64,000 bases of DNA, from the sequence record NC_028957.1; one strand, given 5' to 3'. Each line of letters opens with the position of its first letter. Positions within the stretch are counted from its first letter, which is position 1. The notes below the pieces were generated by a model. That model saw only the letters and a program-made list of their open reading frames with translations, was not told where the DNA came from and did no database searches. This document shows positions 2 through 52,089 of this stretch, in pieces. The translations under genes and the position numbers were made by a program. This stretch comes from Escherichia phage vB_EcoM_VR26.

Positions 2-1951
2 AAAGAAACAACGGTCCAAAGCACTGTTGTTCGTAACGCGACGGGTCGTGCGGCGCTGGTTGGTAAATTCCAGTGGGGCCCAGCTTTCCAGGTAACTCAG
101 ATTACAAACGAAGTTGAACTTGTTGATTTGTTTGGTGGTCCGAATAATGAAACAGCAGATTACTTTATGAGTGGGATGAACTTCCTGCAATATGGTAACG
201 ACCTTCGTACTGTACGTGTTGTTAACCGCGACGAAGCTAAAAACGCATCCCCTGTTGCCGGCAATATTGAAACTACCATCGTTACTGCGGGTACAAACTA
301 TGCTGTTGGTGATGTTATCCAGGTTAAGCATAACCAGACGGTCGTTGAACCAGCTGGGCGTGTGACCAAGGTTGATGTTGATGGTAAAATTCTGGCAATC
401 TTTATTCCTACCAATAAGATTATTGCATTTGCTAAAACTATTAATCAGTATCCTAATTTGGGTAGTGCGTGGACTGCAGAAGTTACGACCACTTCTTCTG
501 GTGTATCCGGTACAATCACTGTAGGTAAAATTGTTACCGATTCAGGTATTCTGTTGACCGAAGCAGAAAACAGTGAAGAAGCAATTACTTCTCTGGAATT
601 CCAGGCATCTTTAGCCAAATATGCAATGCCAGGTGTTGTTGCTCTTTATCCTGGTGAAATTGGTTCGACTCTTGAAGTTGAAATCGTATCTAAAGCTGAA
701 TTCGAAAAAGGTGCAACTACAAATCTGGATATTTTCCCTGGTGGCGGTACGCGTGCTTCTGTAGCTCGTGCAGTGTTTAACTATGGTCCTCAGTCCGAAA
801 ACCAATATGCAATTATCGTTCGCCGTGATGGTGCAATCGTCGAAAACGTTGTTCTATCTACTAAGCAGGGCGAAAAAGATGTTTACGGTAATAATATTTA
901 CCTGGATGACTACTTTGCAAAAGGTACTTCCAACTACATCTATGCAACATCTCGTAACTGGCCTGTAGGCTTCAGTGGTATTATCAATCTGTCGGGTGGT
1001 ATTTCTGCAAACGATAAGATTACTGCTGGTGATTTGATGCAAGGTTGGGACCTGTTCGCTGACCGCGAAGCTCTGCATATTAACTTGCTTATCGCTGGCG
1101 CGGTCGCTGGTGAAGGTGATGCAACTGCTTCCACTGTTCAGAAGCACGTAGTTTCTATTGCTGACGAACGTCAGGATTGTCTGGCATTCATTTCTCCTCC
1201 GAAAGGGTTGTTGGTTAACGTTCCTCTGACCCGTGCAGTGGATAACCTGATTGACTGGCGTACAGGTGGTGGTACATTCGATACTGATAACATGAATATC
1301 AGCACGACTTATGCAGCGATTGATGGCAACTATAAATATCAGTATGATAAATATAACGACGTTAACCGTTGGGTTCCTCTGGCAGCTGATATGGCTGGTC
1401 TGTGTGCTCGTACTGATGATGTTTCTCAGCCTTGGATGTCTCCGGCTGGTTATAACCGTGGTCAGATTTTGAACGTTCTGAAATTGGCTGTTGAGCCTCG
1501 TCAGACCCAGCGTGACCGCATGTATCAAGAAGCTATCAACCCGGTTGTTGGTTTCGCAGGTGGTGATGGTTTTGTTCTGTATGGTGATAAGACTGCAACT
1601 AAAGTTCCATCTCCGATGGACCATATTAACGTTCGCCGTCTTACGAATATGCTGAAGAAAAATATCGGTGACGCATCCAAATATAAACTGTTTGAGCTTA
1701 ACGATAACTTCACTCGTGCATCATTCCGTATGGAAACTTCTCAATACTTGGATGGTATTCGCGCGCTTGGTGGCATTTATGAAGGTCGTGTGGTTTGTGA
1801 TACTACTAACAACACCCCGTCGGTCATAGACCGAAATGAGTTTGTTGCTAGCATATATTATAAGCCTGCAAGGTCGATAAATTATATCGTGCTTAATTTC
1901 GTAGCAACAAGTACGGGCGCTGATTTTGATGAGTTGATTGGGGTGCAATAA
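2..1951 (+). CDS. 18: Tail sheath protein gp18 (5-prime partial; gene begins upstream of window)
   Basis: Frame 2 is open from nt 2 (KETTVQSTVVRNATG...GKFQWGPAFQ); matches remembered T4 gp18 N-terminal region (ETADYFMSAMNFLQYGNDLR) and length class; track start at 128 is an internal TTG. Confidence 0.93.
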   Translation, partial: KETTVQSTVVRNATGRAALVGKFQWGPAFQVTQITNEVELVDLFGGPNNETADYFMSGMNFLQYGNDLRTVRVVNRDEAKNASPVAGNIETTIVTAGTNYAVGDVIQVKHNQTVVEPAGRVTKVDVDGKILAIFIPTNKIIAFAKTINQYPNLGSAWTAEVTTTSSGVSGTITVGKIVTDSGILLTEAENSEEAITSLEFQASLAKYAMPGVVALYPGEIGSTLEVEIVSKAEFEKGATTNLDIFPGGGTRASVARAVFNYGPQSENQYAIIVRRDGAIVENVVLSTKQGEKDVYGNNIYLDDYFAKGTSNYIYATSRNWPVGFSGIINLSGGISANDKITAGDLMQGWDLFADREALHINLLIAGAVAGEGDATASTVQKHVVSIADERQDCLAFISPPKGLLVNVPLTRAVDNLIDWRTGGGTFDTDNMNISTTYAAIDGNYKYQYDKYNDVNRWVPLAADMAGLCARTDDVSQPWMSPAGYNRGQILNVLKLAVEPRQTQRDRMYQEAINPVVGFAGGDGFVLYGDKTATKVPSPMDHINVRRLTNMLKKNIGDASKYKLFELNDNFTRASFRMETSQYLDGIRALGGIYEGRVVCDTTNNTPSVIDRNEFVASIYYKPARSINYIVLNFVATSTGADFDELIGVQ

Positions 1952-1957
1952 TAAATT

Positions 1958-1983
1958 AGGGGATGAAAGTCCCCTTATCTATT
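1958..1983 (+). terminator. Hairpin terminator after gene 18 (AGGGGA-tgaaag-TCCCCT then T-rich)
   Basis: Perfect 6-bp stem with 6-nt loop immediately after the gp18 stop. Confidence 0.6.
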
Positions 1984-2034
1984 ATGGTTGAGTGTAATTG
2001 CTTAACGAAATAGCTTAGACCCATTATACCGTGT

Positions 2035-2042
2035 TATAAATA
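2035..2042 (+). promoter_or_regulatory. T4-type late promoter TATAAATA
   Basis: Exact TATAAATA between gp18 terminator and downstream genes. Confidence 0.6.
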
Positions 2043-2043
2043 A

Positions 2044-2844
2044 AAGCATAAGGCTCCTATAAACGATTATAGAGCACGCAACCTTTAAGTAAGGTGTTTA
2101 TACATAACACGGATAAAATCGTCCCAGAATCGTTCTGGTGTGTGATTTGAGGCTACTATGATAGTAAGTGATAAACAACTCGTTAATGTAACAAACAGAA
2201 ATGTGACAAATTTGCGTGAGCAAGGTTATGACGTTTTAATCGGAACAAAACATTTGGTGAAAATCGAGCATTTAGGTAAGCGAACTAAAATCGATTGCAA
2301 ATGTGATAAATGTGGTGATGAATACACTGTCACCCAAGATAAAATAAACGAAATCAATATCCAATTCTGCAAAAGCCATAGATGGGAAATTTATTCGGAT
2401 TTGCGTAAAGAATTTTGGAACACACCGGATGGACTAAAAATTCGAAAATCTAAAGGTGCAAAAATCTCCAAAGCCAAAAAGGGTATTCCTTGTATAAATA
2501 CACGCGGGGAATTAAATGGACGATATAATCCGAGATTACGAGAATTTAAACGGTATGCATATGCAGTTCGACAATTCACCGCGTTAAATTTTAAATCTGA
2601 AGTCGAAAATCTCCCAAATTTTGAAAAGACCGGGCGGGCTGGAATTGACGGTGCATATCAGTTAGACCACAAGGTTTCCATTAAATATGGATTTGAAAAT
2701 AATATAGACCCCTCAATCATTGGACATATTTTAAATCTTGAAATGATTCCGTGGGAATTGAATCGAGCAAAGGATATAAATAATAGTATATCAATTCTCG
2801 ATTTACAAAAATATATAGAAAATTATCATAGGAAACAATAACTT
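2044..2844 (+). mobile_element. Putative freestanding homing endonuclease insertion between genes 18 and 19
   Basis: Genes 18 and 19 are adjacent in T4; here a 684-bp HNH-like ORF sits between the late promoter and gene 19. Confidence 0.45.
2158..2841 (+). CDS. HNH-family (Mob-like) homing endonuclease, putative
   Basis: 227 aa; Cys cluster CKCDKCGDEY...CKSH (zinc-finger-like) and HNN-type motif QLDHKVSIKYGFENN...NLEMIPWELNRAK; ATG with GAGG Shine-Dalgarno. Confidence 0.6.
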   Translation: MIVSDKQLVNVTNRNVTNLREQGYDVLIGTKHLVKIEHLGKRTKIDCKCDKCGDEYTVTQDKINEINIQFCKSHRWEIYSDLRKEFWNTPDGLKIRKSKGAKISKAKKGIPCINTRGELNGRYNPRLREFKRYAYAVRQFTALNFKSEVENLPNFEKTGRAGIDGAYQLDHKVSIKYGFENNIDPSIIGHILNLEMIPWELNRAKDINNSISILDLQKYIENYHRKQ

Positions 2845-8729: not shown

Positions 8730-8751
8730 TCTTAGATTAAGTTAAATAAAA

Positions 8752-8778
8752 AGGGACCCTTGAGGTCCCTTTCTTGTT
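8752..8778 (+). terminator. Rho-independent terminator after gene 23
   Basis: AGGGACC-loop-GGTCCCT hairpin followed by TTCTTGTTTT. Confidence 0.7.
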
Positions 8779-8779
8779 T

Positions 8780-9073
8780 TCATACCATACCATTTAAATG
8801 AACTTCTACCCGGCGCTTGATGAGGTCTCTGAAATTAACACTGTTCTCTTGAAGTTTCAACCAGTTACCCGATTTGTCTCTGGTGTGAGTAGAATAATTA
8901 CCATTCCACCAAAAATCAGTGTCATATGCTAAGTTTTCATATTTTTTAACTAGTTTGTTCAGAGCATTACCATTAACACCATTTGGGTATTTGTTGACCA
9001 ATGCAACAACTTCAATTTCCAGATTTTTAAAGGTATTCCGAAGGAAAGATACTTTGTTCATTTTAGACTCCAT
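8780..9073 (-). CDS. Hypothetical protein (occupies segD position of T4)
   Basis: 97-aa ORF antisense between genes 23 and 24, with its own early-type promoter upstream; no recognisable motif. Confidence 0.5.
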   Translation of the reverse strand: MESKMNKVSFLRNTFKNLEIEVVALVNKYPNGVNGNALNKLVKKYENLAYDTDFWWNGNYSTHTRDKSGNWLKLQENSVNFRDLIKRRVEVHLNGMV

Positions 9074-9097
9074 TGTTTGGTAACTCAGTATGAAATC

Positions 9098-9127
9098 ATT
9101 ATGTCTTATCTTAATCGGGTTGTAAAC
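9098..9127 (-). promoter_or_regulatory. T4 early-type promoter (GTTTAC-N18-CATAAT)
   Basis: -35 GTTTAC and -10 CATAAT on minus strand upstream of 8780..9073; conserved downstream box also at about 35000 and 52000. Confidence 0.55.
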
Positions 9128-11752: not shown

Positions 11753-12757
11753 TTAACTAATTAATGCAATCCAAACATGTCTTAATGTATCTCTTACATT
11801 TGCAATGAGTTGCTTTTTAACTTCAACAGGATTTTCTGCATCGGTTAATTCTAATTCTTCACGGGACGCCTCTTCCAAAATATCTTGGGCTGTTAGTCCC
11901 ATTACCTTTCCGAAATCCTTAGGCGTTACTTCACCAATCTTACTGATAACATTGTTAATACGGTTAACAGTCACATAATCAGTGAATTGCCACAGCAGGT
12001 CCATGTCATCTTGGGACAACACAACAGCAGCCTTGATAGGCTTATCAGACTTTTTCTTTTCGCTAAATTTAGAGTTCTTACATTTAATCGCTACGCGCTC
12101 ACCATTAGGTAACCAGGCAGGAGTATCAGGTTTAAGAACATACCCTTCTGCAGTGAATACTTTACCTTCAACCTTTGCGTCAAAATCGGTGGTATTCGCG
12201 GTAGTCAAACCCGCATTATCTACTGTAAAATTGTAATCAGGAACCACAGAATCCAGGTCGTTAGGGAGCTTAATCAAGTCTTCAAAGCTACCCGTAGCCA
12301 GGCGTGGGGCAACCTTAAATTTATGGATAATACAGAAGGCTTCCATCAATGAATCAGTCAAAACAGATTCAGAGCCATCTTCCTTAGTAACGCGGATATC
12401 AAATACATAGAAATCTTTGTCACCATAATCCACATTCTTCTGGATACCGGCCCCGGCAAACTCACCATAAATTTGGTATGATTGATAATTAATATCCTGT
12501 AAAAGTCTCTGCACAGTTTTAATGGAATCTGCATAGTTCTTGAGTACAATTTCGTAGCCATAGAAATCTTCTGCAGGTGGGATAGGTCCAGTGCGTTTCG
12601 CACATGTCACATTGTCTTGTTCAATGATTAATGAAAAGTTGGTGCCATGAATCTTTTCACGCGCTACCCATTCACCGCTGGTGAAGCCTTGCAGGCGAAT
12701 CTTTTCAATGAACTTGTTGTTATAGTGATTTTCAAGGCTGTTGTATTTCTTAAACAT
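11753..12757 (-). CDS. rnlB: RNA ligase 2 (Rnl2)
   Basis: 334 aa, same as T4 Rnl2; nucleotidyltransferase motif I KIHGTN; N-terminus near-identical to remembered T4 Rnl2. Confidence 0.9.
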
Positions 12758-12854
12758 AATCTCTCACTTTTGATGTTATAAATATCATTATAAATTATAC
12801 CCTCTATACTTTCTTTCTCTGAAAGGAATTAATCGTATCGGAAGGTCTAGAACC

Positions 12855-12882
12855 ATTATACCACAATTTTATTTGAAGCAAA
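12855..12882 (-). promoter_or_regulatory. T4 middle-type promoter (MotA box TGCTTCA, spacer, -10 TATAAT)
   Basis: Minus strand tttTGCTTCAaataaaattgtggTATAAT upstream of rnlB. Confidence 0.55.
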
Positions 12883-12886
12883 AAGG

Positions 12887-13150
12887 TCAGAATTTTACAT
12901 ACAGCATTGGTTTGTTATCTTGCCAGTCATAATTCCAGGTAAATGATGTAAATTTTTCTGCCCGCAGAAAATCAGATATCTTTGTGCGGTTTCCCTCTTC
13001 ATACTCTTTTTCAGAAACTGCCATATTAACAGCATCTTTGCCATTCTCAGCAGCGGCAATAGCCACTTTGCGAAATATAACAATAAAGTCATTTGCAACT
13101 TTATCTTGTGATTCTTTAGCCATTTGACGTAGTTCTTCTGCGAATGTCAT
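12887..13150 (-). CDS. Hypothetical protein (24.2 position)
   Basis: 87-aa ORF, ATG start, coupled to upstream ORF by ATGA overlap. Confidence 0.5.
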   Translation of the reverse strand: MTFAEELRQMAKESQDKVANDFIVIFRKVAIAAAENGKDAVNMAVSEKEYEEGNRTKISDFLRAEKFTSFTWNYDWQDNKPMLYVKF

Positions 13151-13487: not shown

Positions 13488-15014
13488 ATGACACAAACTA
13501 CAGGTGAAAAAGAAGGCGTATTTTACGGTTATTCTCTTTATGATTTGAATAAAGAAAAACTAATAACTTTTGATGAATTACTTACGGGTATTCAAGGAGA
13601 GCCCGGAGAAAATGGCGATATTGGACCAAAAGGCCCTATTGGTTTAACAGGTCCTCAAGGACCGAAAGGTGATATCGGGTCAAAAGGTATTAAAGGTGAT
13701 ACAGGTCCTCAAGGTATTCAAGGGCCCGCTGGCCCACAAGGTCCTCAGGGAGAAAAGGGAGTCCAAGGTTTAGCTGGAGTCCAAGGCATTCAAGGACCAG
13801 TCGGCCACCAAGGAGTGAAAGGTGATACCGGCCCTCAAGGTATTCAAGGACCGAAAGGTGATACAGGAGCACAAGGCCCACAAGGTGACAAAGGCGAAAT
13901 GGGTCCGGTGGGTCCGGCTGGTCTAACATGGAAAGGAACATGGGACGCTGATGTAGAGTATTCTATAAATGAGGCTGTCGGATATGGTGGTTCTTTATAT
14001 TTCGCCAAAACAAAAGTTCCTAATGGCGAAATACCAACACCGACTTCTAACTATTGGGGTGTTTTGGCTACCGAGGGTCCACAAGGTCCACAAGGTCAAC
14101 AAGGTCTTAAAGGTGATACCGGTCCTCAAGGTATTCAAGGACCTGTAGGGCCTGTAGGGCCGCAGGGTATTCAGGGACCAAGAGGACTTCAAGGGTCAGA
14201 AGGTGAAATAGGACCGCGGGGTATTCAAGGGCTAAAAGGCGAAACTGGGCCCGCTGGTCCACAGGGTATTCAAGGGCTAAAAGGCGAGGTGGGTGCTCAG
14301 GGTCCTTCTGGTTCTCCTGGACTTACAGGACCAGAAGGACCTCGTGGGTTAACAGGCGAAGCTGGAGCTCAAGGACCTCGTGGTGCTATAGGTCCTATCG
14401 GTTTAACAGGTCCTATCGGTTTAACGGGTCCTCAAGGTATTCAAGGTCCGAAAGGTGATACAGGTCCTCAAGGCTTACAAGGTCCTCAAGGCTTACGAGG
14501 TATTCAAGGAGCTCCTGGAGTAAAAGGAGAAGCGGGTGCACAAGGTCCGAAAGGTGATACAGGAGCACAAGGTCCTATTGGTTTAACTGGACCTAAAGGT
14601 GATACAGGCCCGAGCCCTTATACTGTTTATAATTATTCTAATGTTGCAACTGGTTATGCTGAAATGGTTATGCCTGGTGTGTCATCAAACACAGTATTTA
14701 GACTTCGTTCAGTTGGAACTAATATAGAATATAGTGTTCTAAGTAAAGGCGGAGCTAATAGATATGTAGATTGGCACTTTTCAATTCCAAGTGTTTCCGG
14801 CAATACAGTAAGTACTAATAGCGGAACTAATACATTAACTCCTACAGGTAATTTTACTATTGTGGCGACCGCTTATAATGGACTAAGGGGATTTACAATA
14901 ACATTATGCGAGTGGGGTTCAAGAGCTATTGTTGATATCACTGTTTATCATCATGGGCGTTCGGGAGACACAACCAAAGCTGTGGCTATTCGTATGACTA
15001 CTACAAAATACTAA
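13488..15014 (+). CDS. Collagen-like triple-helix repeat protein with carbohydrate-binding-like insert and C-terminal globular domain
   Basis: 508 aa; two Gly-X-Y tracts (37 and 60 triplets) separated by a W.GTW....Y..N..V.Y.GS.Y insert resembling CBM5/12-type motifs; about 130-aa non-repetitive C-terminal domain; GGAGG Shine-Dalgarno. Confidence 0.85.
   Translation: MTQTTGEKEGVFYGYSLYDLNKEKLITFDELLTGIQGEPGENGDIGPKGPIGLTGPQGPKGDIGSKGIKGDTGPQGIQGPAGPQGPQGEKGVQGLAGVQGIQGPVGHQGVKGDTGPQGIQGPKGDTGAQGPQGDKGEMGPVGPAGLTWKGTWDADVEYSINEAVGYGGSLYFAKTKVPNGEIPTPTSNYWGVLATEGPQGPQGQQGLKGDTGPQGIQGPVGPVGPQGIQGPRGLQGSEGEIGPRGIQGLKGETGPAGPQGIQGLKGEVGAQGPSGSPGLTGPEGPRGLTGEAGAQGPRGAIGPIGLTGPIGLTGPQGIQGPKGDTGPQGLQGPQGLRGIQGAPGVKGEAGAQGPKGDTGAQGPIGLTGPKGDTGPSPYTVYNYSNVATGYAEMVMPGVSSNTVFRLRSVGTNIEYSVLSKGGANRYVDWHFSIPSVSGNTVSTNSGTNTLTPTGNFTIVATAYNGLRGFTITLCEWGSRAIVDITVYHHGRSGDTTKAVAIRMTTTKY
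13596..13928 (+). repeat. Collagen Gly-X-Y coding triplet array 1 (37 triplets)
   Basis: Uninterrupted GXY repeats with recurring GPQGIQG/GDTGPQG units. Confidence 0.9.
14076..14615 (+). repeat. Collagen Gly-X-Y coding triplet array 2 (60 triplets, includes tandem GPIGLTGPIGLTGP)
   Basis: Uninterrupted GXY repeats; direct DNA repeat ggtcctatcggtttaac x2 near 14390. Confidence 0.9.
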
Positions 15015-15023
15015 GGAGCTTTA

Positions 15024-15887
15024 ATGGAACCGGTTAAAGCTGTGTTAGAGCCTGATGTAATAGATGTGGAATATGGTAATACATACTCGGCTACTGTAAC
15101 TCTGTCTCCTATAGAAAATATTCCAGATGGTTCCGTGATAAGATATGATTGGGTTGTTAATAACAAGTTCGTTGGTACGGGTGAAGCTACTCGTACCACC
15201 CAACCATCTCAGACCGGAAATTATGTATTATCATGTAGAGTATTCATTACTCCGCCTAATGAAAATACTGTAATGGTAACAACTAATAAATCATATGGGT
15301 ATGTATATAAAAATTCCGATACAAGTCCAGTAGATGCAGAAATATTATATGATAACAAGATATACCAAGTAGGAAGCAAAGTTAGATTATTAGCCGTTGC
15401 CAATAACCCAGATACCAACTTTGTTAAAGGTATTATATGGAAGGATGCTGATGGTAAGATAATAGGTATAGGTCGGGAATATATCCATACAATGCAATCA
15501 GAGTATGATATAGTTCGAGCTAAAGTTACAATGGATTCGCCTATAAGAGATGAATTTAGTAAGAACTTTACTATACATTTGTACGCTATAAATGTTCAAG
15601 AAGGAACATGTATAAGATATATTCATCCTTTAGACCACAGGGATGCAGGATTTATCTGGTGTGGTTGGTGGGTTATGGATGAAATCCAACGAGCGATAAA
15701 ACTTGGGCTGGATTGGAAAAATCCAAAAGAGCTAGATTTAAATTACAAGTGTGATTTAGAGACATTAGCGTTATTGCTCAAGACATATCCTGAAGCCGAA
15801 GTTCAAGAATCAAGACACGGATATATAATAACCAGACTACAAATTGAGACTGGCGGAATATATGAAAAACCATATGAAGTAAAATAA
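15024..15887 (+). CDS. Hoc-like decoration protein paralog (Ig-like N-terminal region plus Hoc-type capsid-binding C-terminal domain)
   Basis: 287 aa; C-terminal HPLDHRDAGFIWCGWWVMDEIQ...YPEAEVQESRHGYII matches Hoc C-terminus (YVHPLP...YIWCGWWVMD...YPEVDVQESRNG); AGGAG Shine-Dalgarno; 9 nt after collagen-like gene. Confidence 0.8.
   Translation: MEPVKAVLEPDVIDVEYGNTYSATVTLSPIENIPDGSVIRYDWVVNNKFVGTGEATRTTQPSQTGNYVLSCRVFITPPNENTVMVTTNKSYGYVYKNSDTSPVDAEILYDNKIYQVGSKVRLLAVANNPDTNFVKGIIWKDADGKIIGIGREYIHTMQSEYDIVRAKVTMDSPIRDEFSKNFTIHLYAINVQEGTCIRYIHPLDHRDAGFIWCGWWVMDEIQRAIKLGLDWKNPKELDLNYKCDLETLALLLKTYPEAEVQESRHGYIITRLQIETGGIYEKPYEVK
15657..15679 (+). repeat. 23-bp perfect inverted repeat, arm 1 (TGGTGTGGTTGGTGGGTTATGGA, encodes WCGWWVMD)
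   Basis: Exact reverse complement present at about 16112..16134 inside hoc. Confidence 0.85.
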
Positions 15888-15910
15888 AAAGGGCCGCAAG
15901 GCCCTTTTAT
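15888..15910. terminator. Bidirectional terminator between Hoc-like paralog and hoc
   Basis: GGGCC-gcaa-GGCCC hairpin flanked by A-run and T-run. Confidence 0.7.
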
Positions 15911-17016: not shown

Positions 17017-17044
17017 AAAACCTCCAAGGGCCGAAGCCCTTTTG

Positions 17045-17725
17045 TTAATTTAAACGAATAAAAGATGAGTTACGTGTTTCACGAATAAGAATGGAACCGT
17101 CACGATTGATATAGTAAATCAAACTAAACAATGTTTGGTGTGCGCTTGCATGAGTAAAAGAAGTAGGGCGTTCTTTCCAGTCTGGGGTCTCTTTAATCCA
17201 CTGGTAAATCCACCAAGGGAGAGTACAATATCCAGGAGCTTTGCCCAGCATAAGCAGATTGGGGCTAAAATTTTTAGGCAGTGTAAATTTAGGAGTTTCA
17301 GCTTCGATGATTTGAGCGACAGCTTCTTCAAAGTCTTCGGAAACAAACGGCACTTCAATTTCAACGAGTTTAACTTCTGATTCAGGGACAACTTCCTGGG
17401 TAACTTCGACTACTTCAACGGGTGCTTCTGGAGCATCAAACAAAAGAACAGCTTCAGGTTTAGCTGATTCTTCACCTTCAAACTTACTACCTGATAATTC
17501 ATCATCGGCATTAATAAGGTCGGTGATGCTTAAGCCTTCGTTATCGTCCGGCATAGGCATGTCAGCAAATGCTTTAAGTCCTGCTTCCAGGTCAATCAAC
17601 ATATTATCGAAAGTTTTTGTTTTCTTAACATCAACACCAAGCGATGATGCATATTCAGCTAATTTTTCTTTGGCTTCTTTTTTCTCGAGGATACGAATTT
17701 CCTCAATATAGTTCTTGTCAATCAT
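17045..17725 (-). CDS. inh: Inh-like protein (inhibitor of prohead protease) with Hoc-related C-terminal domain
   Basis: 226 aa (T4 Inh 226 aa); position between hoc and uvsW; C-terminal LPWWIYQWIKETPDWK resembles the Hoc WCGWWVMD...DWK region. Confidence 0.7.
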   Translation of the reverse strand: MIDKNYIEEIRILEKKEAKEKLAEYASSLGVDVKKTKTFDNMLIDLEAGLKAFADMPMPDDNEGLSITDLINADDELSGSKFEGEESAKPEAVLLFDAPEAPVEVVEVTQEVVPESEVKLVEIEVPFVSEDFEEAVAQIIEAETPKFTLPKNFSPNLLMLGKAPGYCTLPWWIYQWIKETPDWKERPTSFTHASAHQTLFSLIYYINRDGSILIRETRNSSFIRLN

Positions 17726-19870: not shown

Positions 19871-20104
19871 TTAACTTTCCTTAAAGTATCTCATACCAGT
19901 ATCTATCCCCATATTGTGAGAATAGAATGCATCATCGATGTATCCCGCAAATTTACCTTTAACATAGATAACATCTTCACCACAAGGGTGGTCAGCGCAG
20001 ATACGAATATCTGCACGATTCAATTTCCATTCCTTCATCATATACTTAATTTCTTCTTCGAACTCTTCGTCTTGGTTAAACGCATCGTCGATAGAATATC
20101 GCAT
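19871..20104 (-). CDS. Hypothetical protein (uvsY.-1/-2 position)
   Basis: 77-aa ORF, ATG start overlapping uvsY stop. Confidence 0.5.
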   Translation of the reverse strand: MRYSIDDAFNQDEEFEEEIKYMMKEWKLNRADIRICADHPCGEDVIYVKGKFAGYIDDAFYSHNMGIDTGMRYFKES

Positions 20105-20538
20105 TACTTGCCTGCCTCGAATTGTCTTATTTCTAACATATGTTTAAGCGCGAAACTTCTCGACTTAACACCATCTAATGCAGCGCTACAGAAGTCCTGG
20201 AGCAGTGCCCAATATTGAATTGAAGTATCAATCTTAAGCACGCTTGAATCTGCGGCCATAACTGTTTTCAATTCTGACTTCTCGTACACATCCATGCATA
20301 CTTCTTCCCCTGGGTCACCCCTTCCCGTATAATGGTCTAGTCGTTTTTTCAGTGCAGTTTTCTTCTGAATCTCAAGACGCATTATTTCTTTCTTGCAGTT
20401 GGTATACAATCTCAACCATTTGCTATGCAACAAAACGTTGTTTTGTGTTTCATATTGAATTTGTGTACCATCAATTTTTAAATCTGCATCCAACTCATCC
20501 TGAAATACTTCCAACTTATATTCAATCTCTGTTTTCAT
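20104..20538 (-). CDS. uvsY: UvsY recombination mediator protein
   Basis: C-terminal region near-identical to remembered T4 UvsY (KWL...KKEIMRLE.QKK.ALK.RLD.Y.GRGD...KSRSFALKH...FEAGK); start moved to internal ATG (MKTEIEYK) because track start overlaps the promoter -10. Confidence 0.88.
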   Translation of the reverse strand: MKTEIEYKLEVFQDELDADLKIDGTQIQYETQNNVLLHSKWLRLYTNCKKEIMRLEIQKKTALKKRLDHYTGRGDPGEEVCMDVYEKSELKTVMAADSSVLKIDTSIQYWALLQDFCSAALDGVKSRSFALKHMLEIRQFEAGK

Positions 20539-20566
20539 AATGTATCCAATGTAAGGGTCTAGAACC

Positions 20567-20592
20567 ATTATACAGCCATAAAATTAAAGCAT
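20567..20592 (-). promoter_or_regulatory. T4 middle promoter (MotA box ATGCTTTA, 12-nt spacer, -10 TATAAT) for uvsY
   Basis: Minus strand aTGCTTtAattttatggctgTATAAT; T4 PuvsY is a classical MotA-dependent promoter. Confidence 0.65.
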
Positions 20593-20981
20593 TAACCGTT
20601 TTGACTTAACTGAATCCTGATTTGTTCGAGGGTGTCAGGGTCATCAACAATGCTGAACTGAACCGTTACGATGATGGAGTTATCATCATACATAGGGACA
20701 ACCGCAACCTGCAGATTGCTTATCCTTGGTTCAAAGTTCCGCACAGCGGAGACGATGTTGCGTTTAATGGTATCTGTGATTAATGGTGTGATATTCTCAA
20801 AAAGCTGATTACTTATATCACATCCAAATTCAGGCATAAAAGGCCTTGACCCTTTTCTTGTGGTGATTATTCCCAGAAGACTGTTCTTAACAGACCTTGC
20901 ACCAGTTACTTTAGCAACGTCTTTATCCCAACTTGTAGATAAGTCGGGAGACACATCGCTATACATTTTGTTTATATTCAT
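20592..20981 (-). CDS. 25: Baseplate wedge protein gp25
   Basis: 129 aa; MNINKMYSD...TRKGSRPFMPEFGCD... close to remembered T4 gp25. Confidence 0.9.
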   Translation of the reverse strand: MNINKMYSDVSPDLSTSWDKDVAKVTGARSVKNSLLGIITTRKGSRPFMPEFGCDISNQLFENITPLITDTIKRNIVSAVRNFEPRISNLQVAVVPMYDDNSIIVTVQFSIVDDPDTLEQIRIQLSQNG

Positions 20982-26896: not shown

Positions 26897-27855
26897 TGTT
26901 TACTTTACAAGAATTTCAAACACAAGCGATTAATATCGACTTGCAGAGGAATAACCTTTTTAGCGTGGTCTTCGCGACCGCGCCTTCCTCTAAATCTCAG
27001 AATCTTCTGGACCAGTTCGGTGGTGCATTATTCAGCAACCTTCCTGTTAACTCGGATTGGTTTGGTTTAACGCAAGGCGACTTAACCCAGGGAATAACAA
27101 CTCTTGTTACTGCAGGAACTCAAAAGCTTATTCGTAAATCAGGAATAAGCAAATATCTTATCGGGGCAATGAGTAACCGTGTTGTGCAATCATTATTAGG
27201 GGAATTTGAGGTTGGTACTTACCTGCTTGATTTCTTTAATATGGCTTATCCAACGGCCGGGCTATTAGTTCACTCCGTTAAGCTTCCGGACAACACATTG
27301 AACTACGAAATGGACCTTAACCATAACGCGCCAAATATCAAGATAACAGGGAGAGAATATTCTCCGTTGGTATTAAGCTTTAGAATGGATTCAGAGGCAG
27401 GGAACTTCAGAGCATTTAACGATTGGGTCAACTCTGTACAGGACCCAGTTACCCAGCTAAGGGCTTTGCCTGAAGATGTTGAAGCAGATATTCAGGTCAA
27501 CCTTCACTCACGTAATGGATTGCCACACACGGTTGTTATGTTAACTGGTTGTGTTCCTGTAAGTGTATCTGCACCTGAATTGAGTTATGAAGGGGATAAT
27601 CAGATAGCTACATTTGATGTGACTTTTGCTTATCGCGTTATGTCAACTGGGGCGGTGGGAAGAAATGCTGCATTAGAATGGTTAGAAGATAAGGTTATTA
27701 AGGGTGTATCTGGTATTAGTTCAGATAACAACTTGAACGCAGAAGTTGCCAAATTGAGTCGCCTGTCTGGTGCCCAATCTGGATTAACAAGTCTGTACAA
27801 TACGTTCACTGGTTCCGGGAGAGCAATCTCTGGTGGAAGTCAACGTATATTATAA
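26896..27855 (+). CDS. 54: Baseplate tail tube initiator gp54
   Basis: 319 aa; near-identical stretches to remembered T4 gp54 (SKYLIGAMSNRVVQSLLGEFEVGTYLLDFFNMAYP). Confidence 0.92.
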   Translation: MFTLQEFQTQAINIDLQRNNLFSVVFATAPSSKSQNLLDQFGGALFSNLPVNSDWFGLTQGDLTQGITTLVTAGTQKLIRKSGISKYLIGAMSNRVVQSLLGEFEVGTYLLDFFNMAYPTAGLLVHSVKLPDNTLNYEMDLNHNAPNIKITGREYSPLVLSFRMDSEAGNFRAFNDWVNSVQDPVTQLRALPEDVEADIQVNLHSRNGLPHTVVMLTGCVPVSVSAPELSYEGDNQIATFDVTFAYRVMSTGAVGRNAALEWLEDKVIKGVSGISSDNNLNAEVAKLSRLSGAQSGLTSLYNTFTGSGRAISGGSQRIL

Positions 27856-27861
27856 AAAGAA

Positions 27862-27885
27862 AGGGACCCGAAGGTCCCTTTTTTA
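27862..27885. terminator. Bidirectional terminator after gene 54
   Basis: AGGGACC-cgaa-GGTCCCT hairpin followed by TTTTTT. Confidence 0.75.
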
Positions 27886-28173
27886 TTTGCGGAATGAAAT
27901 GAAACCTGCTACAGTCATTACAGCTTCTTTCTTAACAAAGACTGTAATCGCAATTGGCGCTTCAGATTCAAGCTGTCCAGTTACTATACCATTAAAAATA
28001 TTTTCTGTTTGTTCAGAATTTACAAAGTTTTCAACAGGGCGAAGGTCAAACTTCTTATCTTCACCAAACACGCGGCGCAATTCATTACCCACCGCGCTGT
28101 CAAACTCTTCTGAAGCTGGGATAACATTCTCAACTACCAGTTCCTGACCATTAAAGCGAAAAGATGATTTCAT
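27883..28173 (-). CDS. Hypothetical protein (alt.-1 position)
   Basis: 96 aa from internal ATG with GAGGA Shine-Dalgarno; track start lies inside the promoter -10. Confidence 0.5.
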   Translation of the reverse strand: MKSSFRFNGQELVVENVIPASEEFDSAVGNELRRVFGEDKKFDLRPVENFVNSEQTENIFNGIVTGQLESEAPIAITVFVKKEAVMTVAGFISFRK

Positions 28174-28204
28174 TTTGTTTTCCTCATGTGCAATTGATAT
28201 GAAC

Positions 28205-30324: not shown

Positions 30325-30345
30325 AAAAAGGCCGAAGCCCTTTTG
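30325..30345 (-). terminator. Putative imperfect hairpin terminator after gene 30
   Basis: GGC-cgaa-GCC core with flanking A/T runs. Confidence 0.4.
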
Positions 30346-31878
30346 TTATTTTAACCCCGTCTGTGACCAGTCGCCAAATACTTCTTCGAAAGTATCTGCA
30401 CGGTCTTTATCGAATCTGAACCCTTTGATAATCGGAAGGAACAGTTTAACAGTATTATCTTTACGAGTTTCAGAAGTCAACCAACCATTACATTCACAAT
30501 CAGCAATCATTCCAACTAATTCACCTTTACGAGCCTTAATCATAAGAGCTTCGCGGTCCATTTCATGACGCTCATCAATTGGGATAATAGCCCATTTCTT
30601 AGTCTTCGGGTCTTTGACTTGTGTTGTATCTTTGAAGCCTGACCCACAATTGGTAACAATTTTACCGCAAGAAGATTGAAGCACAACACCACCAATTTTA
30701 TTTGGGTCTTTCTCGTGCTCATAGAATCCGATAATTTCCAAAGCGATGTCAATAACTTCTTTGAACTTGTACATATTCTTAGAACGCTTGTTTTCCCAAG
30801 GAGCTGCAGTGTTTTTAAGAATAATACCTTCGAGCTTTAAAGCAATATATTTCTTATAGATGGCTTTGGCTTCTTCGAGGTTATTAACCACGTGGTTTTC
30901 AATCAGAATCATGCGGTCGTAGCCATGAAGCACCACGTTATCTGCAATCATCTTCTCTAATACCGCGAACCGCACATCATATTTCAGAGGGTTAAGAATT
31001 TTAACATCTGAATACACTTCAATCAACGGAACATAATCCCAGACCTGGAATTTCATGCCAGCTGCTTCAGTCGCAGTGATAGTTCCTTTTAATGATTTGT
31101 TCGCTAGACCGTTTGACTTAGTACGAGATTCCGCAGATTCAATTTGAGTCTCGGCTTGCTCTGTATCGCCAAAAAGGAAGGCCAAACCGTCATTCTGGGG
31201 AGCTACTTTCTGTTCATGGTATACTAACTCGCCATCAATTAAAACGCCCTCAGGATGTCTCTCACGCGCTTCACGGGTGGCTTCAATCAGTTCCTTTTTA
31301 AGGAGGTCAAGCTTGAGGTATTCGTTACCGGCACGGGATAACAATCGAACATCATCCAACTCATCACCACGAACTTCTGCAAAACACCTGGCACCATCGG
31401 CTTTCAATTGTGCAAAGGCCGGGAACTTAATGTTTTTAGCAATACCTGCTTCATCATAAGAAGAAGCAAGCATCTGTGGCTGTTCAGGAATTAAACCTTT
31501 CCAAACTTTATTCGCAATCGATACGGATGCCCCACATTCCAGGTCACGCATCATCACACGGCGCAGGACTTCAACATCTGCTTTTTTACCATCAGCAATA
31601 TAACCCGATAATTCCTCGATTGCAGCATTACCTGTTAATTTACGAGGGGCTAATGTAAATTCGATAAAGTCAAGCATATCACTTATATTCAGCATACCAA
31701 AGCTTTGAGTCGTTGTCCCAGGTTTTGGCCATTTCTTGATATAGAACTGAATGCCTTTGGAATATGTCAAACGATACACACGTTTAAGCGTTTCATTTTC
31801 AGAATACGATTCCAGGATAGCTTGTTTCTCTTTCGTAGAATCGGTTGCAGCAATTTCATTTAAAATATCTAAAATCAT
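30346..31878 (-). CDS. 30: ATP-dependent DNA ligase gp30
   Basis: 510 aa; N-terminus MILDILNEIAATDSTKEKQAILE and adenylation motif KADGAR match remembered T4 DNA ligase. Confidence 0.95.
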   Translation of the reverse strand: MILDILNEIAATDSTKEKQAILESYSENETLKRVYRLTYSKGIQFYIKKWPKPGTTTQSFGMLNISDMLDFIEFTLAPRKLTGNAAIEELSGYIADGKKADVEVLRRVMMRDLECGASVSIANKVWKGLIPEQPQMLASSYDEAGIAKNIKFPAFAQLKADGARCFAEVRGDELDDVRLLSRAGNEYLKLDLLKKELIEATREARERHPEGVLIDGELVYHEQKVAPQNDGLAFLFGDTEQAETQIESAESRTKSNGLANKSLKGTITATEAAGMKFQVWDYVPLIEVYSDVKILNPLKYDVRFAVLEKMIADNVVLHGYDRMILIENHVVNNLEEAKAIYKKYIALKLEGIILKNTAAPWENKRSKNMYKFKEVIDIALEIIGFYEHEKDPNKIGGVVLQSSCGKIVTNCGSGFKDTTQVKDPKTKKWAIIPIDERHEMDREALMIKARKGELVGMIADCECNGWLTSETRKDNTVKLFLPIIKGFRFDKDRADTFEEVFGDWSQTGLK

Positions 31879-34972: not shown

Positions 34973-35013
34973 TTTATTCTCCAGTGTTTTATTGTGTAAC
35001 TCAGTATGGAATC

Positions 35014-35043
35014 ATTATGCACTGGTCAAACCCTGTTGTAAAC
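35014..35043 (-). promoter_or_regulatory. T4 early-type promoter (GTTTAC-N18-CATAAT)
   Basis: Same conserved cassette as at 9098 and 52018. Confidence 0.55.
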
Positions 35044-35053
35044 CTTTTTATGG

Positions 35054-35082
35054 AAATAAAAAAGGGACTCCGAAGAGTCCCT
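35054..35082 (-). terminator. Rho-independent terminator (AGGGACTC-cgaa-GAGTCCCT then T-run)
   Basis: Perfect 8-bp stem immediately after stop of small basic ORF. Confidence 0.75.
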
Positions 35083-38120: not shown

Positions 38121-38662
38121 CAGATTGTCTCCTGTTTTACTTGTTTAACGATAGAAGCTTTTGTGATATCGCCCTTGATAATATAGCAATCTTCTGCAGT
38201 ACCACGGTTTAATAGGCGCTCTGCTTCGTCTTCCGCATATTCTTTTGATGTATGACGAGAGTTAATCTCAATCTTGCCATTTTTAACCACGAGTAATTTC
38301 CAAACTGATGCAAGTTTCACCGGTACAGGCTCAACTTCTGGCTTAACACCAACTTCCGCCTGGATGAAATAATCAAATTCATCAGACAATGGACCAGCAG
38401 AAACAAACATTGCTCCATGATGCCTGTTCTGTGTGCTAGATATTTTTGCCAAATCCACAAAATCATTTTCATCAATCAAACGAATCTCACAAACTTTTTT
38501 ACCGCCGCTGATAGCATCAGGTACAATCTTAACTTCAAACGGAGTCATGCCGATGTATCCAGCAATTTGGTAATTAGCTGCCCAGCCTCCGGCAATAAAT
38601 TGTTTTTTGGCATTTTCAGACGTGAATTTGTAAAACTTACCTTCTTCAAAGAAATTGCTCAT
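38120..38662 (-). CDS. Hypothetical protein; N-terminal motif shared with 51606..51974
   Basis: 180 aa; GKFYKF...AKKQFIAG; GAGGA Shine-Dalgarno. Confidence 0.55.
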   Translation of the reverse strand: MSNFFEEGKFYKFTSENAKKQFIAGGWAANYQIAGYIGMTPFEVKIVPDAISGGKKVCEIRLIDENDFVDLAKISSTQNRHHGAMFVSAGPLSDEFDYFIQAEVGVKPEVEPVPVKLASVWKLLVVKNGKIEINSRHTSKEYAEDEAERLLNRGTAEDCYIIKGDITKASIVKQVKQETI

Positions 38663-38722
38663 TTTGTTTTCCTCATGTGTTGATGAAATTCATTATACAC
38701 CATCCGTGGTGAAAGTAAACAC

Positions 38723-39001: not shown

Positions 39002-39073
39002 TTTCTTTTCTCGCTTAGTTATTGGGGTATCCAAAGGACCTAGACCCCATTATAACATAAAATTTTTAAAGCG

Positions 39074-39289
39074 TTAATGAACGGTATGCACCTTGACATT
39101 AACGATAAATCGGTCAATGACTTCAGTCAGCGGAACAAACTCAACATAGTACTCGCCTTTGTAACGTTCATTGAGGTCATTACGAAGGGCCGCTAGCGAG
39201 TTAATGAGGGCAGGAGACATATTCTGCCCTACCAGTTTCTGAAGCTCTTTATAAGCTTCTTCTTCAACTTCATGGTGTTTGTTATACAT
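39074..39289 (-). CDS. Hypothetical protein
   Basis: 71 aa from internal ATG chosen to remove 77-nt overlap with upstream gene. Confidence 0.4.
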   Translation of the reverse strand: MYNKHHEVEEEAYKELQKLVGQNMSPALINSLAALRNDLNERYKGEYYVEFVPLTEVIDRFIVNVKVHTVH

Positions 39290-44345: not shown

Positions 44346-44366
44346 ACAAAAAGGGCCGAAGCCCTT
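44346..44366 (-). terminator. Terminator after nrdB (AGGGC-cgaa-GCCCT then T-run)
   Basis: Hairpin between nrdB stop and denA start. Confidence 0.6.
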
Positions 44367-44369
44367 TCC

Positions 44370-45548
44370 TTATAGATATTTACGGAAACCAGCAAGAACA
44401 TTCTCATCGACGTCATTGTCAATCTGGGCTACCAGGTAAGCGGACAACTCAACTTCTTGTGGCGCAGATTGCACATTATCAGAATTGAGATATTCGCGAA
44501 TCCATGGAATCGGGTGCTTAGTAGATTCTAACACGATTTCACAAGGGAGACCGCATTGCTTCATACGAGAAACTGTCAGGTAATCGATGAACCGGTTAAG
44601 AATCTCGACGCTCAGCCCGGGGAGTCCACCATCTTTAAACAGATGCACAGCCCATTCTTTTTCCTGGCGATTGACTTCCATAAAAATGGCTGCGGCTTCT
44701 GCTTCGCATTCTTGAGCGATTTTAACCCATTCGTCACCGTCAACACCGGTCTGCAGCTGACGAAGAATATATTGGGTCCCCTTAAGGTGGAGCTGTTCAT
44801 CACGGGCGATGAACTTCATTATCTTCGCATTGCCTTCCATGATTTCCATGTTCTTATGGAAGTTGAAAGTACAAGCAAAAGATACATAAAAACGAATGGC
44901 TTCCAGCGCATTAATGACATGAAGGCAGAGATAAAGAGACTTCATCAATGCTCGTTTGGCAATAGCTTCTTGTGTGATAGCTCGTTCCAAACGTTGGTCC
45001 GCTTCGGGAGTTTCTTTGGCTAGTTCAATAAAAGCAATCTGGTTTTGCCATTGACGAGTTTTATTCAGAACGTCGTCATAATAATGTCCGATGGATTCGG
45101 CTCGCTTCATGATTGCATCATCTAACAGGATTTCGTCGAATACCTTCGCCGGGTCTGTATAGAGATTTCGCATGATGTGTGTATAAGAACGAGAGTGAAT
45201 TGTCTCGCTGAATGTCCAGGTCTGAATCCATGTATCAAGACTTGGGTCAGAAACTAATGCGGCTAATGCTGCAGCTGGAGCACGGCCCTGGATACTATCC
45301 AGAAGTGATTGGTATTTCAGGTTATTGGTAAAAATATTTTGTTGATGTTCAGGAAGCTTATTAAATTGAGCCCCGTCCATCATCAGGTTTACTTCCTCGG
45401 GTCGCCAGAAAAAACTCAACTGCTTTTCACAAAGCTCTTCAAAAACTTTATGACGCTGGATATCATACCGGGCGATGCCCAATCCAGAACCAAAGAACAT
45501 CGGCTCGGCTAAAACATCCACCGGAGTGGTATTAAAAACTGTACTCAT
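44370..45548 (-). CDS. nrdB: Ribonucleotide reductase small subunit NrdB (no intron)
   Basis: 392 aa contiguous (T4 NrdB 388 aa, intron-interrupted in T4). Confidence 0.95.
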   Translation of the reverse strand: MSTVFNTTPVDVLAEPMFFGSGLGIARYDIQRHKVFEELCEKQLSFFWRPEEVNLMMDGAQFNKLPEHQQNIFTNNLKYQSLLDSIQGRAPAAALAALVSDPSLDTWIQTWTFSETIHSRSYTHIMRNLYTDPAKVFDEILLDDAIMKRAESIGHYYDDVLNKTRQWQNQIAFIELAKETPEADQRLERAITQEAIAKRALMKSLYLCLHVINALEAIRFYVSFACTFNFHKNMEIMEGNAKIMKFIARDEQLHLKGTQYILRQLQTGVDGDEWVKIAQECEAEAAAIFMEVNRQEKEWAVHLFKDGGLPGLSVEILNRFIDYLTVSRMKQCGLPCEIVLESTKHPIPWIREYLNSDNVQSAPQEVELSAYLVAQIDNDVDENVLAGFRKYL

Positions 45549-51974: not shown

Positions 51975-52017
51975 TTTAATTTCCTCGGTTGTTTATCGTG
52001 TAACTCAGTATGGAATC

Positions 52018-52047
52018 ATTATGCCTTAGCTCAAAGGACTTGTACAC
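52018..52047 (-). promoter_or_regulatory. T4 early-type promoter (GTGTAC-N18-CATAAT)
   Basis: Same conserved cassette as at 9098 and 35014. Confidence 0.5.
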
Positions 52048-52060
52048 TACTTTTTGAAAA

Positions 52061-52084
52061 TAAAAAAGGGACCCGAAGGTCCCC
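52061..52084 (-). terminator. Terminator after gene 32 (GGGACC-cgaa-GGTCCC then T-run)
   Basis: Perfect hairpin 6 nt after gene 32 stop. Confidence 0.75.
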
Positions 52085-52089
52085 TTATA

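Follow-up and report, generated by a model that had tools for sequence, protein, structure and literature searches.

An 18-nucleotide repeat in the predicted rnlB and uvsY middle promoters of Escherichia phage vB_EcoM_VR26 belongs to a conserved T4-type promoter subfamily

The 18-mer GGTCTAGAACCATTATAC occurs in exactly two plus-strand copies in the 64-kb stretch of the genome of Escherichia phage vB_EcoM_VR26 (NC_028957.1) that was analyzed here and is referred to as the window; the phage is a Gaprivervirus, a VR7/VR25/SP18-like T4-type phage of the Straboviridae. Read on the minus strand, the copies appear to be the cores of two MotA/AsiA-dependent middle promoters, located upstream of the genes for RNA ligase 2 (rnlB; site 1) and UvsY (uvsY; site 2). 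The pair belongs to a discrete promoter subfamily, with the layout MotA box-N12/13-TATAAT-G(G/A)NTCT-A(G/A)G..CC, that is conserved from T4 to this phage. The 18-mer is genuine, but as a regulatory repeat of a T4-like phage it is largely ordinary, and its two copies are probably identical through selection on the start region together with concerted evolution.

The original prediction of an exact 18-mer repeat in two copies stands, although the coordinates proposed for it (12845-12862 and ∼20554) were 1 to 2 nt off (Table 1). An exact 18-mer repeat anywhere in 64 kb is not very improbable in itself (∼0.06 to 0.2 pairs expected, by our own estimate). In dinucleotide-preserving shuffles of the window (n = 100), the sequence had a mean of 0.07 matches with ≤3 mismatches, and no shuffle reached three. 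The pair is nonrandom because both copies are on the same strand, are intergenic, and are in register with a MotA box and TATAAT. All 11 nt after TATAAT are identical between the copies, whereas the 1,653 pairs formed by the 58 mapped middle promoters of T4 have a mean identity of 3.3/11 after the −10 element and a maximum of 8/11; the longest identical run through −10 among these pairs is 16 nt (PtRNAE/P31) and is ≤12 nt in all others. The window pair is therefore exceptional among arbitrary promoters but normal inside a subfamily. A weaker likeness continues further downstream (12827-12861 versus 20539-20573, 77% identity over 35 nt).

Site 1 lies in a 130-bp gap between the gene 24.2 stop codon (12887-12889) and the rnlB start (12757), and the gap that holds site 2 is 53 bp long and runs from the stop codon of gene 25 (20592-20594) to the start of uvsY (20538). 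Both regions closely match Gaprivervirus genomes only (VR25, VR7, SP18, TH15, and others). The T4 middle promoter is defined by a MotA box, (a/t)(a/t)(a/t)TGCTTtA, and a sigma-70 TAtaaT element 12 ± 1 bp downstream (PMC2988021). Both sites agree with the published description, with box cores of TGCTTCA or TGCTTTA, spacers of 13 and 12 bp, and a perfect TATAAT; consensus scans of both sites found no TTGACA-like sigma-70 −35 hexamer 16 to 18 bp from either TATAAT and no terminator hairpin. On the minus strand, site 1 reads TTTTGCTTCA-N13-TATAAT-GGTTCTAGACC and site 2 reads TAATGCTTTA-N12-TATAAT-GGTTCTAGACCC. The expectation of middle promoters directly upstream of rnlB and uvsY, each with a properly spaced MotA-box-like TGCTT, is thus supported, and Pfam confirms the identity of both gene products (Table 1). 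In VR25, the nearest relative, which is 97 to 98% identical at both sites, asiA (161352-161627) and motA (163695-164303) are present; this region is outside the window.

Table 1. Positions and sequences of the features discussed. Window positions refer to the 64-kb stretch; numbering within window promoters is relative to the predicted transcription starts.
Source	Feature	Position	Strand	Details
Window	MotA box, site 1, TTTTGCTTCA	12883-12874	−	13 bp upstream of −10; sequence reading and pattern scan
Window	MotA box, site 2, TAATGCTTTA	20594-20585	−	12 bp upstream of −10; overlaps stop codon of gene 25
Window	Extended −10, site 1, TGG+TATAAT	12855-12863	−	TATAAT at 12860-12855; TGn motif present
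Window	18-mer, site 1	12844-12861	−	G(−13) TATAAT(−12 to −7) GGTTCT(−6 to −1) AGACC(+1 to +5)
Window	18-mer, site 2	20556-20573	−	G TATAAT(20572-20567) GGTTCT AGACC
Window	rnlB (RNA ligase 2)	11753-12757	−	Pfam PF09414 and PF18043; VR25/VR7 annotation; ∼91-nt leader from site 1
Window	uvsY	20104-20538	−	Pfam PF11056, E = 6.7e-50; annotation of relatives; ∼22-nt leader from site 2
Window	gp25, gene next to site 2			Pfam PF04965
Window	Third member, TATGCTTTT-N13-TATAAT-GGGTCT-AAGC	2011-2056	−	Gene 18/ORF (open reading frame) 2158 intergenic; points back into gene 18
Window	Fourth member, AACGCTTTA-N12-TATAAT-GGGGTCT-AGGTCCTTTGG	39035-39083	−	Upstream of cd.3-like gene; 26.2 bits
Window	Predicted middle promoter, TTTGCTTCA-N13-TATAAT-GGTCCC-AGAGCG	57555-57585	−	Inside gene 34, antisense; almost identical to T4 P34i
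VR25	Member	11029	+	srd/modA gap
VR25	Member	46549	−	Upstream of nrdC.6
VR25	Member	73694	+	Gene 3/mob gap; exact TATAATGGTTCTAGACC
VR25	Member	98567	−	Gene 18/19 gap
VR25	Member	108720	−	rnlB
VR25	Member	116245	−	uvsY
VR25	Member	134629	−	Upstream of cd.3
T4	Member PuvsY	115383	−	
T4	Member PnrdC.7	53337	−	TATAATGGTTCTAAGCCC
T4	Member	11885 (stretch 11860-11904)	+	srd/modA gap; antisense into modA
T4	Member	75988 (stretch 75959-76006)	+	Gene 3/gene 2 gap; antisense into gene 2
T4	PuvsY mapped +1	115371		A seven nt after TATAAT
T4	PnrdC.7 mapped +1	53325		A seven nt after TATAAT
T4	P34i mapped +1	153011		A seven nt after TATAAT
T4	Core variant TCTAAGTCC			Identical 21-mer TGGTATAATGAATCTAAGTCC at PuvsY and srd/modA site
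Dhakavirus	Core variant TCTAGGTCC			Identical 23-mer TGTTATAATGGGTCTAGGTCCTT at PrnlB and Pcd.3
Gaprivervirus	Core variant TCTAGACC			PrnlB, PuvsY, gene 3/mob site

Middle promoters called PrnlB and PuvsY have been mapped in T4, and the two window sites relate to them differently. By position, site 2 is orthologous to T4 PuvsY (AATGCTTCA-N12-TATAAT-GAATCTAAGTCC), the promoter of the replication origin oriF, or ori(uvsY), in the gene 25/uvsY intergenic region. A+T-rich DNA follows site 2, and the uvsY leader is ∼22 nt in the window versus ∼44 nt in T4. The rnlB promoter of the window is intergenic and a subfamily member, whereas T4 has no intergenic gap before rnlB, and its PrnlB, located within gene 24.2, falls outside the subfamily; site 1 is also without a T4 origin counterpart.

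The T4 record AF158101 carries no promoter features, but mapped T4 starts are available for comparison. PuvsY and PnrdC.7 share the TATAAT-GNNTCT-A layout of the window sites, and their transcripts start at that A (Table 1). By analogy, the window transcripts probably start at A 12848 (rnlB) and A 20560 (uvsY). With a start seven nt after TATAAT, the 18-mer spans −13 to +5, and of the 11 bases after −10, six (GGTTCT) would be untranscribed discriminator and five (AGACC) transcribed. The proposal that the repeat covers the first 12 transcribed nucleotides is not compatible with the mapped T4 starts. A shared initial-transcript element, suggested on the same grounds, lacks support because five bases would be transcribed, which is too short, and the leaders have no significant RNA structure. 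For annotation, the result places two likely middle promoters and their likely starts in a Gaprivervirus, the one at uvsY being the counterpart of the T4 oriF promoter.

A motif search over the window and related genomes, along the lines suggested with the original prediction, found the motif at further loci and in three genera. In the full VR25 genome, TATAAT followed by G[GA][ATG]TCT has seven occurrences versus 0.28 expected, and all seven have a MotA-type box (GCTT core) 12 to 13 bp upstream, two of them deviating at the last position (GCTTTT). Members are found at the same loci throughout: seven in VR25, seven in Dhakavirus VR5 (all seven loci), four in T4 (four of those loci), and four in the window, where TATAAT is at 2028, 12860, 20572, and 39054, in each case on the minus strand. 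A fuzzy search for GGTTCTAGACC with ≤2 edits was too noisy, and an nhmmer profile was used in its place; counted from the first T of TATAAT, it spans −32 to +14 (roughly −43 to +2 when numbered from the transcription start). Members score 26 to 40 bits, against ≤12 bits for every other site. The profile was cross-checked because it was built from the members themselves: with a T4-only model (four members), the four window members rank first, and a VR25-member model recovers the four T4 members first. The third window member (35.4 bits) is the top match of the T4-only model and is conserved in relatives, and the fourth has orthologues in VR25 (134629) and VR5 (135354). The two plus-strand T4 members, both antisense, are missing from the published list of 58 middle promoters and have orthologous copies in VR25 and VR5.

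Invariant positions of the subfamily are G(−6), TCT(−3 to −1), and A(+1); frequent but not invariant are G at −5, a purine at +2, and CC around +4/+5. T4 PuvsY and PnrdC.7 resemble the window sites in having a MotA box 12 to 13 bp from TATAAT, no −35 element, and TATAAT-G(G/A)NTCT-A, but the T4 core is GAATCTAAGTCC or GGTTCTAAGCCC rather than GGTTCTAGACC. The published T4 consensus ends at −10 and includes no discriminator or start block (PMC2988021), and a conserved block of this kind in a subset of T4-type middle promoters therefore extends beyond it. No published description of the subfamily and no VR7 promoter analysis were found, although subscription papers on T4 and VR7 promoters were outside the search and an earlier description is possible. 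The survey suggests that the window sites are further middle promoters of an already known type and that the conserved, concertedly evolving subfamily, including the oriF promoter, is modestly new.

Within Gaprivervirus, the 18-mer is invariant at site 1 in 13 of 13 and at site 2 in 12 of 12 related genomes examined. In most relatives, the identity of the two copies extends to 21 nt (GTATAATGGTTCTAGACCCTT). At site 1, none of the true variable columns falls inside the 18-mer, compared to 27 of 112 columns elsewhere, and the adjoining stretch from +6 to +17 is hypervariable, the most variable of the intergenic region. In that stretch, the rnlB leader falls into two divergent haplotype groups, one comprising the window, VR25, VR7, and UPEC01 and the other comprising the rest. 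The leader also contains a second sigma-70-like promoter match (TTCAGA-18-TATAAT; 12794-12823, minus strand), whose TATAAT is found in the window, VR25, and VR7 only; UPEC01 and other relatives have TCTAAT.

Subfamily cores have been homogenized within genomes. T4, Dhakavirus, and Gaprivervirus each have their own core variant, repeated at more than one locus (Table 1), and in all three genera the copy at uvsY is closest to a paralogue of its own genome. Over the 12 nt after −10, paralogues (n = 48) differ by a mean edit distance of 3.17 and orthologues (n = 15) by 3.93. The rnlB copy of the window is followed by TTCCG, as in Dhakavirus rnlB, but has a core of the Gaprivervirus uvsY type, and this mosaic looks like a short conversion patch. 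T4-type phages recombine on short homologies of <50 bp (PMC2839356), which makes short-patch recombination among the copies plausible. The subfamily may thus serve as a test case for such recombination among dispersed regulatory repeats.

We consider it probable that the copies belong to a MotA/AsiA promoter subfamily kept identical by selection on the start region and by concerted evolution. MotA would bind the box centered near −30, and sigma-70 region 2 would bind TATAAT (plus TGn at site 1), with transcription starting at the A seven bases downstream. Selection would act on the discriminator and start-site region, most plausibly via contacts with RNA polymerase. The dispersed copies would also exchange short patches by recombination or gene conversion, which would give each genus a core variant and an identical pair of its own.

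The polymerase-contact reading of the extension is the one we prefer, and it draws on general knowledge of bacterial promoters. A nontemplate G at −6/−5 contacts sigma region 1.2 and lengthens the life of the open complex, and a pyrimidine-purine step at −1/+1, as well as a G at +2, favors a precise start. Lambda PR (GATAAT-GGTTGC-A) has GGTT directly after −10, which is associated with long-lived open complexes through sigma region 1.2. In the window promoters, the GG discriminator might touch sigma region 1.2 and the G at +2 the core-recognition pocket, and such contacts could stabilize the open complex and sharpen start-site choice; they would matter most when MotA takes the place of the −35 contact. 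The likeness of lambda PR to the window core is limited to the four bases GGTT, and lambda PR differs in having a −35 hexamer and no activator. The subfamily offers a test case for the role of sequence downstream of −10 in promoters in which MotA replaces the −35 contact.

Several points weigh against this interpretation. First, promoter activity, MotA dependence, and the start sites are all argued from homology. Second, the conservation test at site 1 is weak: Fisher's p is about 0.05, and this value is conservative, as it counts one alignment-gap artifact column as variable. Third, the difference between paralogues and orthologues is a plain comparison of means from a small sample, and parallel selection for a genus-specific factor would yield an identical pattern. 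Fourth, the polymerase contacts do not account for retention of TCT (−3 to −1) and CC (+4/+5). Fifth, at three of the seven loci the element is antisense to neighboring genes, a pattern that neither an ordinary gene-promoter role nor any other explanation examined here accounts for. No shared protein was found downstream of the antisense-oriented copies among T4, VR25, and VR5.

The antisense loci are one reason to consider that the extended core is read by a factor other than RNA polymerase, i.e., in R-loop replication primers (oriF-like), in noncoding or antisense RNAs, or by a phage DNA-binding protein on GGT(T)CTAGACC. Site 2 is orthologous to the oriF promoter, whose transcript primes replication, and the three antisense loci have no conserved ORF downstream. 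The predicted promoter inside gene 34 of the window is the orthologue of T4 P34i, the oriG promoter, and has TATAATGGTCCCAGAG in common with the family core; at 11.5 bits against the subfamily profile, however, it is an outlier and scores as a nonmember. Promoter cores retain TCTAG at the start site even though CTAG is depleted ∼5.7-fold in the window (41 observed versus 234 expected; VR25, 108 versus 615) and ∼2-fold in T4 (243 versus 463). DNA downstream of both window sites is A+T rich (70% at +1 to +60 of site 2, 93rd percentile; 77% at +11 to +70 of site 1, 99th percentile), but this measure was dropped as evidence because the known T4 oriG scores at the 46th percentile.

Other observations make such a reader doubtful. 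According to the review by Kreuzer and Brister (PMC3016281), oriF and oriG are hardly homologous except that each has a middle promoter and an unwinding element, and R-loop formation needs no specific sequence. The T4 family positions at 11.9, 53.3, and 76.0 kb do not coincide with oriA (16.8 kb) or oriE (79.4 kb), as annotated in the T4 record, or with oriC, which is near rI.-1 according to the same review. No candidate factor was identified. A palindrome or dimeric binding site, GGT(T)CTAGACC, was considered and rejected, being near-palindromic here but not in the T4 core GAATCTAAGTCC. On balance, a reader other than RNA polymerase is unlikely.

A related and equally tentative proposal, to which we give little credence, is that the block from −6 to about +8 defines a distinct class of MotA promoters, in which the start-site sequence would specify R-loop or primer formation or short noncoding or antisense RNAs and would be read by a co-evolving genus factor. 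Its basis is the occurrence of the element at seven loci over three genera, of which three are antisense without an ORF and one is the oriF promoter. The question of what sets origin promoters apart is described as open in the review of Kreuzer and Brister (PMC3016281), and a subfamily that includes oriF and antisense copies, two of them T4 copies outside the list of 58 promoters, gives a modest handle on it. For T4 transcription generally, a differential RNA sequencing preprint reports 150 start sites, 22 of them antisense (bioRxiv 10.1101/2024.04.04.588121).

Recent duplication, in which one promoter would have been copied before the other gene and the 18-mer would be an undecayed remnant, had been offered as an explanation and is hard to reconcile with the comparison of relatives. 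It would fit the exact identity over 18 nt (21 nt in most relatives), the 77% identity over 35 nt, and the lack in T4 of an intergenic promoter before rnlB, the T4 PrnlB sequence inside gene 24.2 being unrelated. However, the MotA-box flanks and the 12- to 13-nt spacers of the two sites are alike in A/T richness only, and the spacers differ in length. All Gaprivervirus genomes examined have both promoters; a subfamily promoter also precedes rnlB in Dhakavirus, and its TTCCG matches the window rnlB copy and not the uvsY copy; and in more distant T4-like contigs, rnlB is preceded by a MotA-type promoter whose start site has TCTAG. Both sites are therefore old, with family promoters at both loci in Dhakavirus, and with unrelated spacers and flanks, recent duplication of a whole cassette is therefore rejected as improbable. 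The evidence points instead to functional constraint and concerted evolution. A scan of IMG/VR viral contigs with the 14-mer AATGGTTCTAGACC returned mostly unrelated contigs, with VR20 and VR25 as the only relatives, and was uninformative because the pattern is too short.

A role at the RNA level is very unlikely. By analogy with T4 genes e, soc, and 49, the 18-mer on read-through transcripts could mask the ribosome-binding region, and at uvsY the −10 UAUAAU can pair with the start-codon region AUUAUG in the predicted read-through fold. This fold is no better than those of shuffled sequences (z = −0.70), however, and neither are those of the rnlB leader (z = −0.25), the uvsY leader (+0.40), and the cd.3 leader (+0.99). 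No equivalent pairing exists at rnlB, where AUG is ∼91 nt away, or at T4 uvsY; the antisense-oriented members are unexplained by it; and an Rfam search of the whole window gave no match. Finally, chance coincidence of two strong promoters is extremely improbable: although the −10 consensus and one G make up 7 of the 18 bases and the number of exact repeats expected in 64 kb of AT-rich DNA is as given above, none of the 1,653 T4 promoter pairs reaches 9/11 identity after −10, and this core is also found at further loci and in three genera.

Promoter early stem-loop elements (PeSLs; Arbiol 2010; Comeau 2014) are a known system similar to the subfamily, as they are likewise dispersed, highly similar intergenic promoter cassettes and short recombination patches in T4-type genomes. 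Some subfamily members also resemble PeSLs in bordering variable insertions (19.1 and mob). PeSLs, however, are early promoters of the sigma-70 type that have a −35 box and always include a stem-loop terminator, whereas the window sites are MotA type and have neither; at both sites, no −35 box (a MotA box is there instead), no terminator hairpin, and no significant fold was found.

Other regulatory repeats are present in the window. A 44-nt family has three copies (9061-9104, 34977-35020, and 51981-52024), with related 33-nt repeats at 35036-35068 and 52040-52072. On the minus strand, the family corresponds to T4-type early promoters with a conserved block past −10, TATAATGATTCC(A/G)TACTGAGTTAC, so conservation past −10 is found outside the middle-promoter subfamily as well. 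An exact 21-mer with a ribosome-binding site and start codon is found at 28170-28190 and 38659-38679 (reverse complement, CACATGAGGAAAACAAAATGA). Terminator hairpins form two families, GGGACCCGAAGGTCCC (8745-8772, 15881-15908, 27854-27881, and 52059-52086) and GGGCCGAAGCCC (17026-17053, 30327-30354, and 44351-44378). Given these early-promoter, terminator, and ribosome-binding-site repeats, similar regulatory repeats are ordinary in this genome.

Two further window members have features of their own. The promoter in the gene 18/ORF 2158 gap (region 1950-2056, minus strand; TATAAT at 2028-2023) has a predicted start at 2016 and is kept in other Gaprivervirus genomes, with the core GGGTCTAAGC in the window versus GGTTCTACGG in those genomes. 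A strong, apparently bidirectional terminator hairpin at 1975-1958 (fold z = −3.4) lies ∼40 nt downstream, and the combination predicts a noncoding RNA of ∼60 nt. The motif ATAATAGAT(T)A recurs 12 to 50 nt downstream of antisense-oriented members (window, ∼1978-1986; VR25, ∼73740; T4, ∼76050 and 11910); it is at the 3′ end of the converging gene and may merely reflect stop-codon or terminator-tail sequence. The core of the promoter at 39035-39083, GGGGTCTAGGTCCTTTGG, nearly matches the Dhakavirus cd.3 and rnlB copies; the VR25 core is identical, and the window has one extra G.

Not far from site 1, positions 13595-14611 (plus strand) hold dense repeats with a 9-nt period that encode a Gly-X-Y collagen-like protein, a homologue of VR7 gp196. 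This gene and its neighbor are missing from many relatives (SP18, RZ, VR20, and others), and the 24.3-hoc interval is therefore variable.

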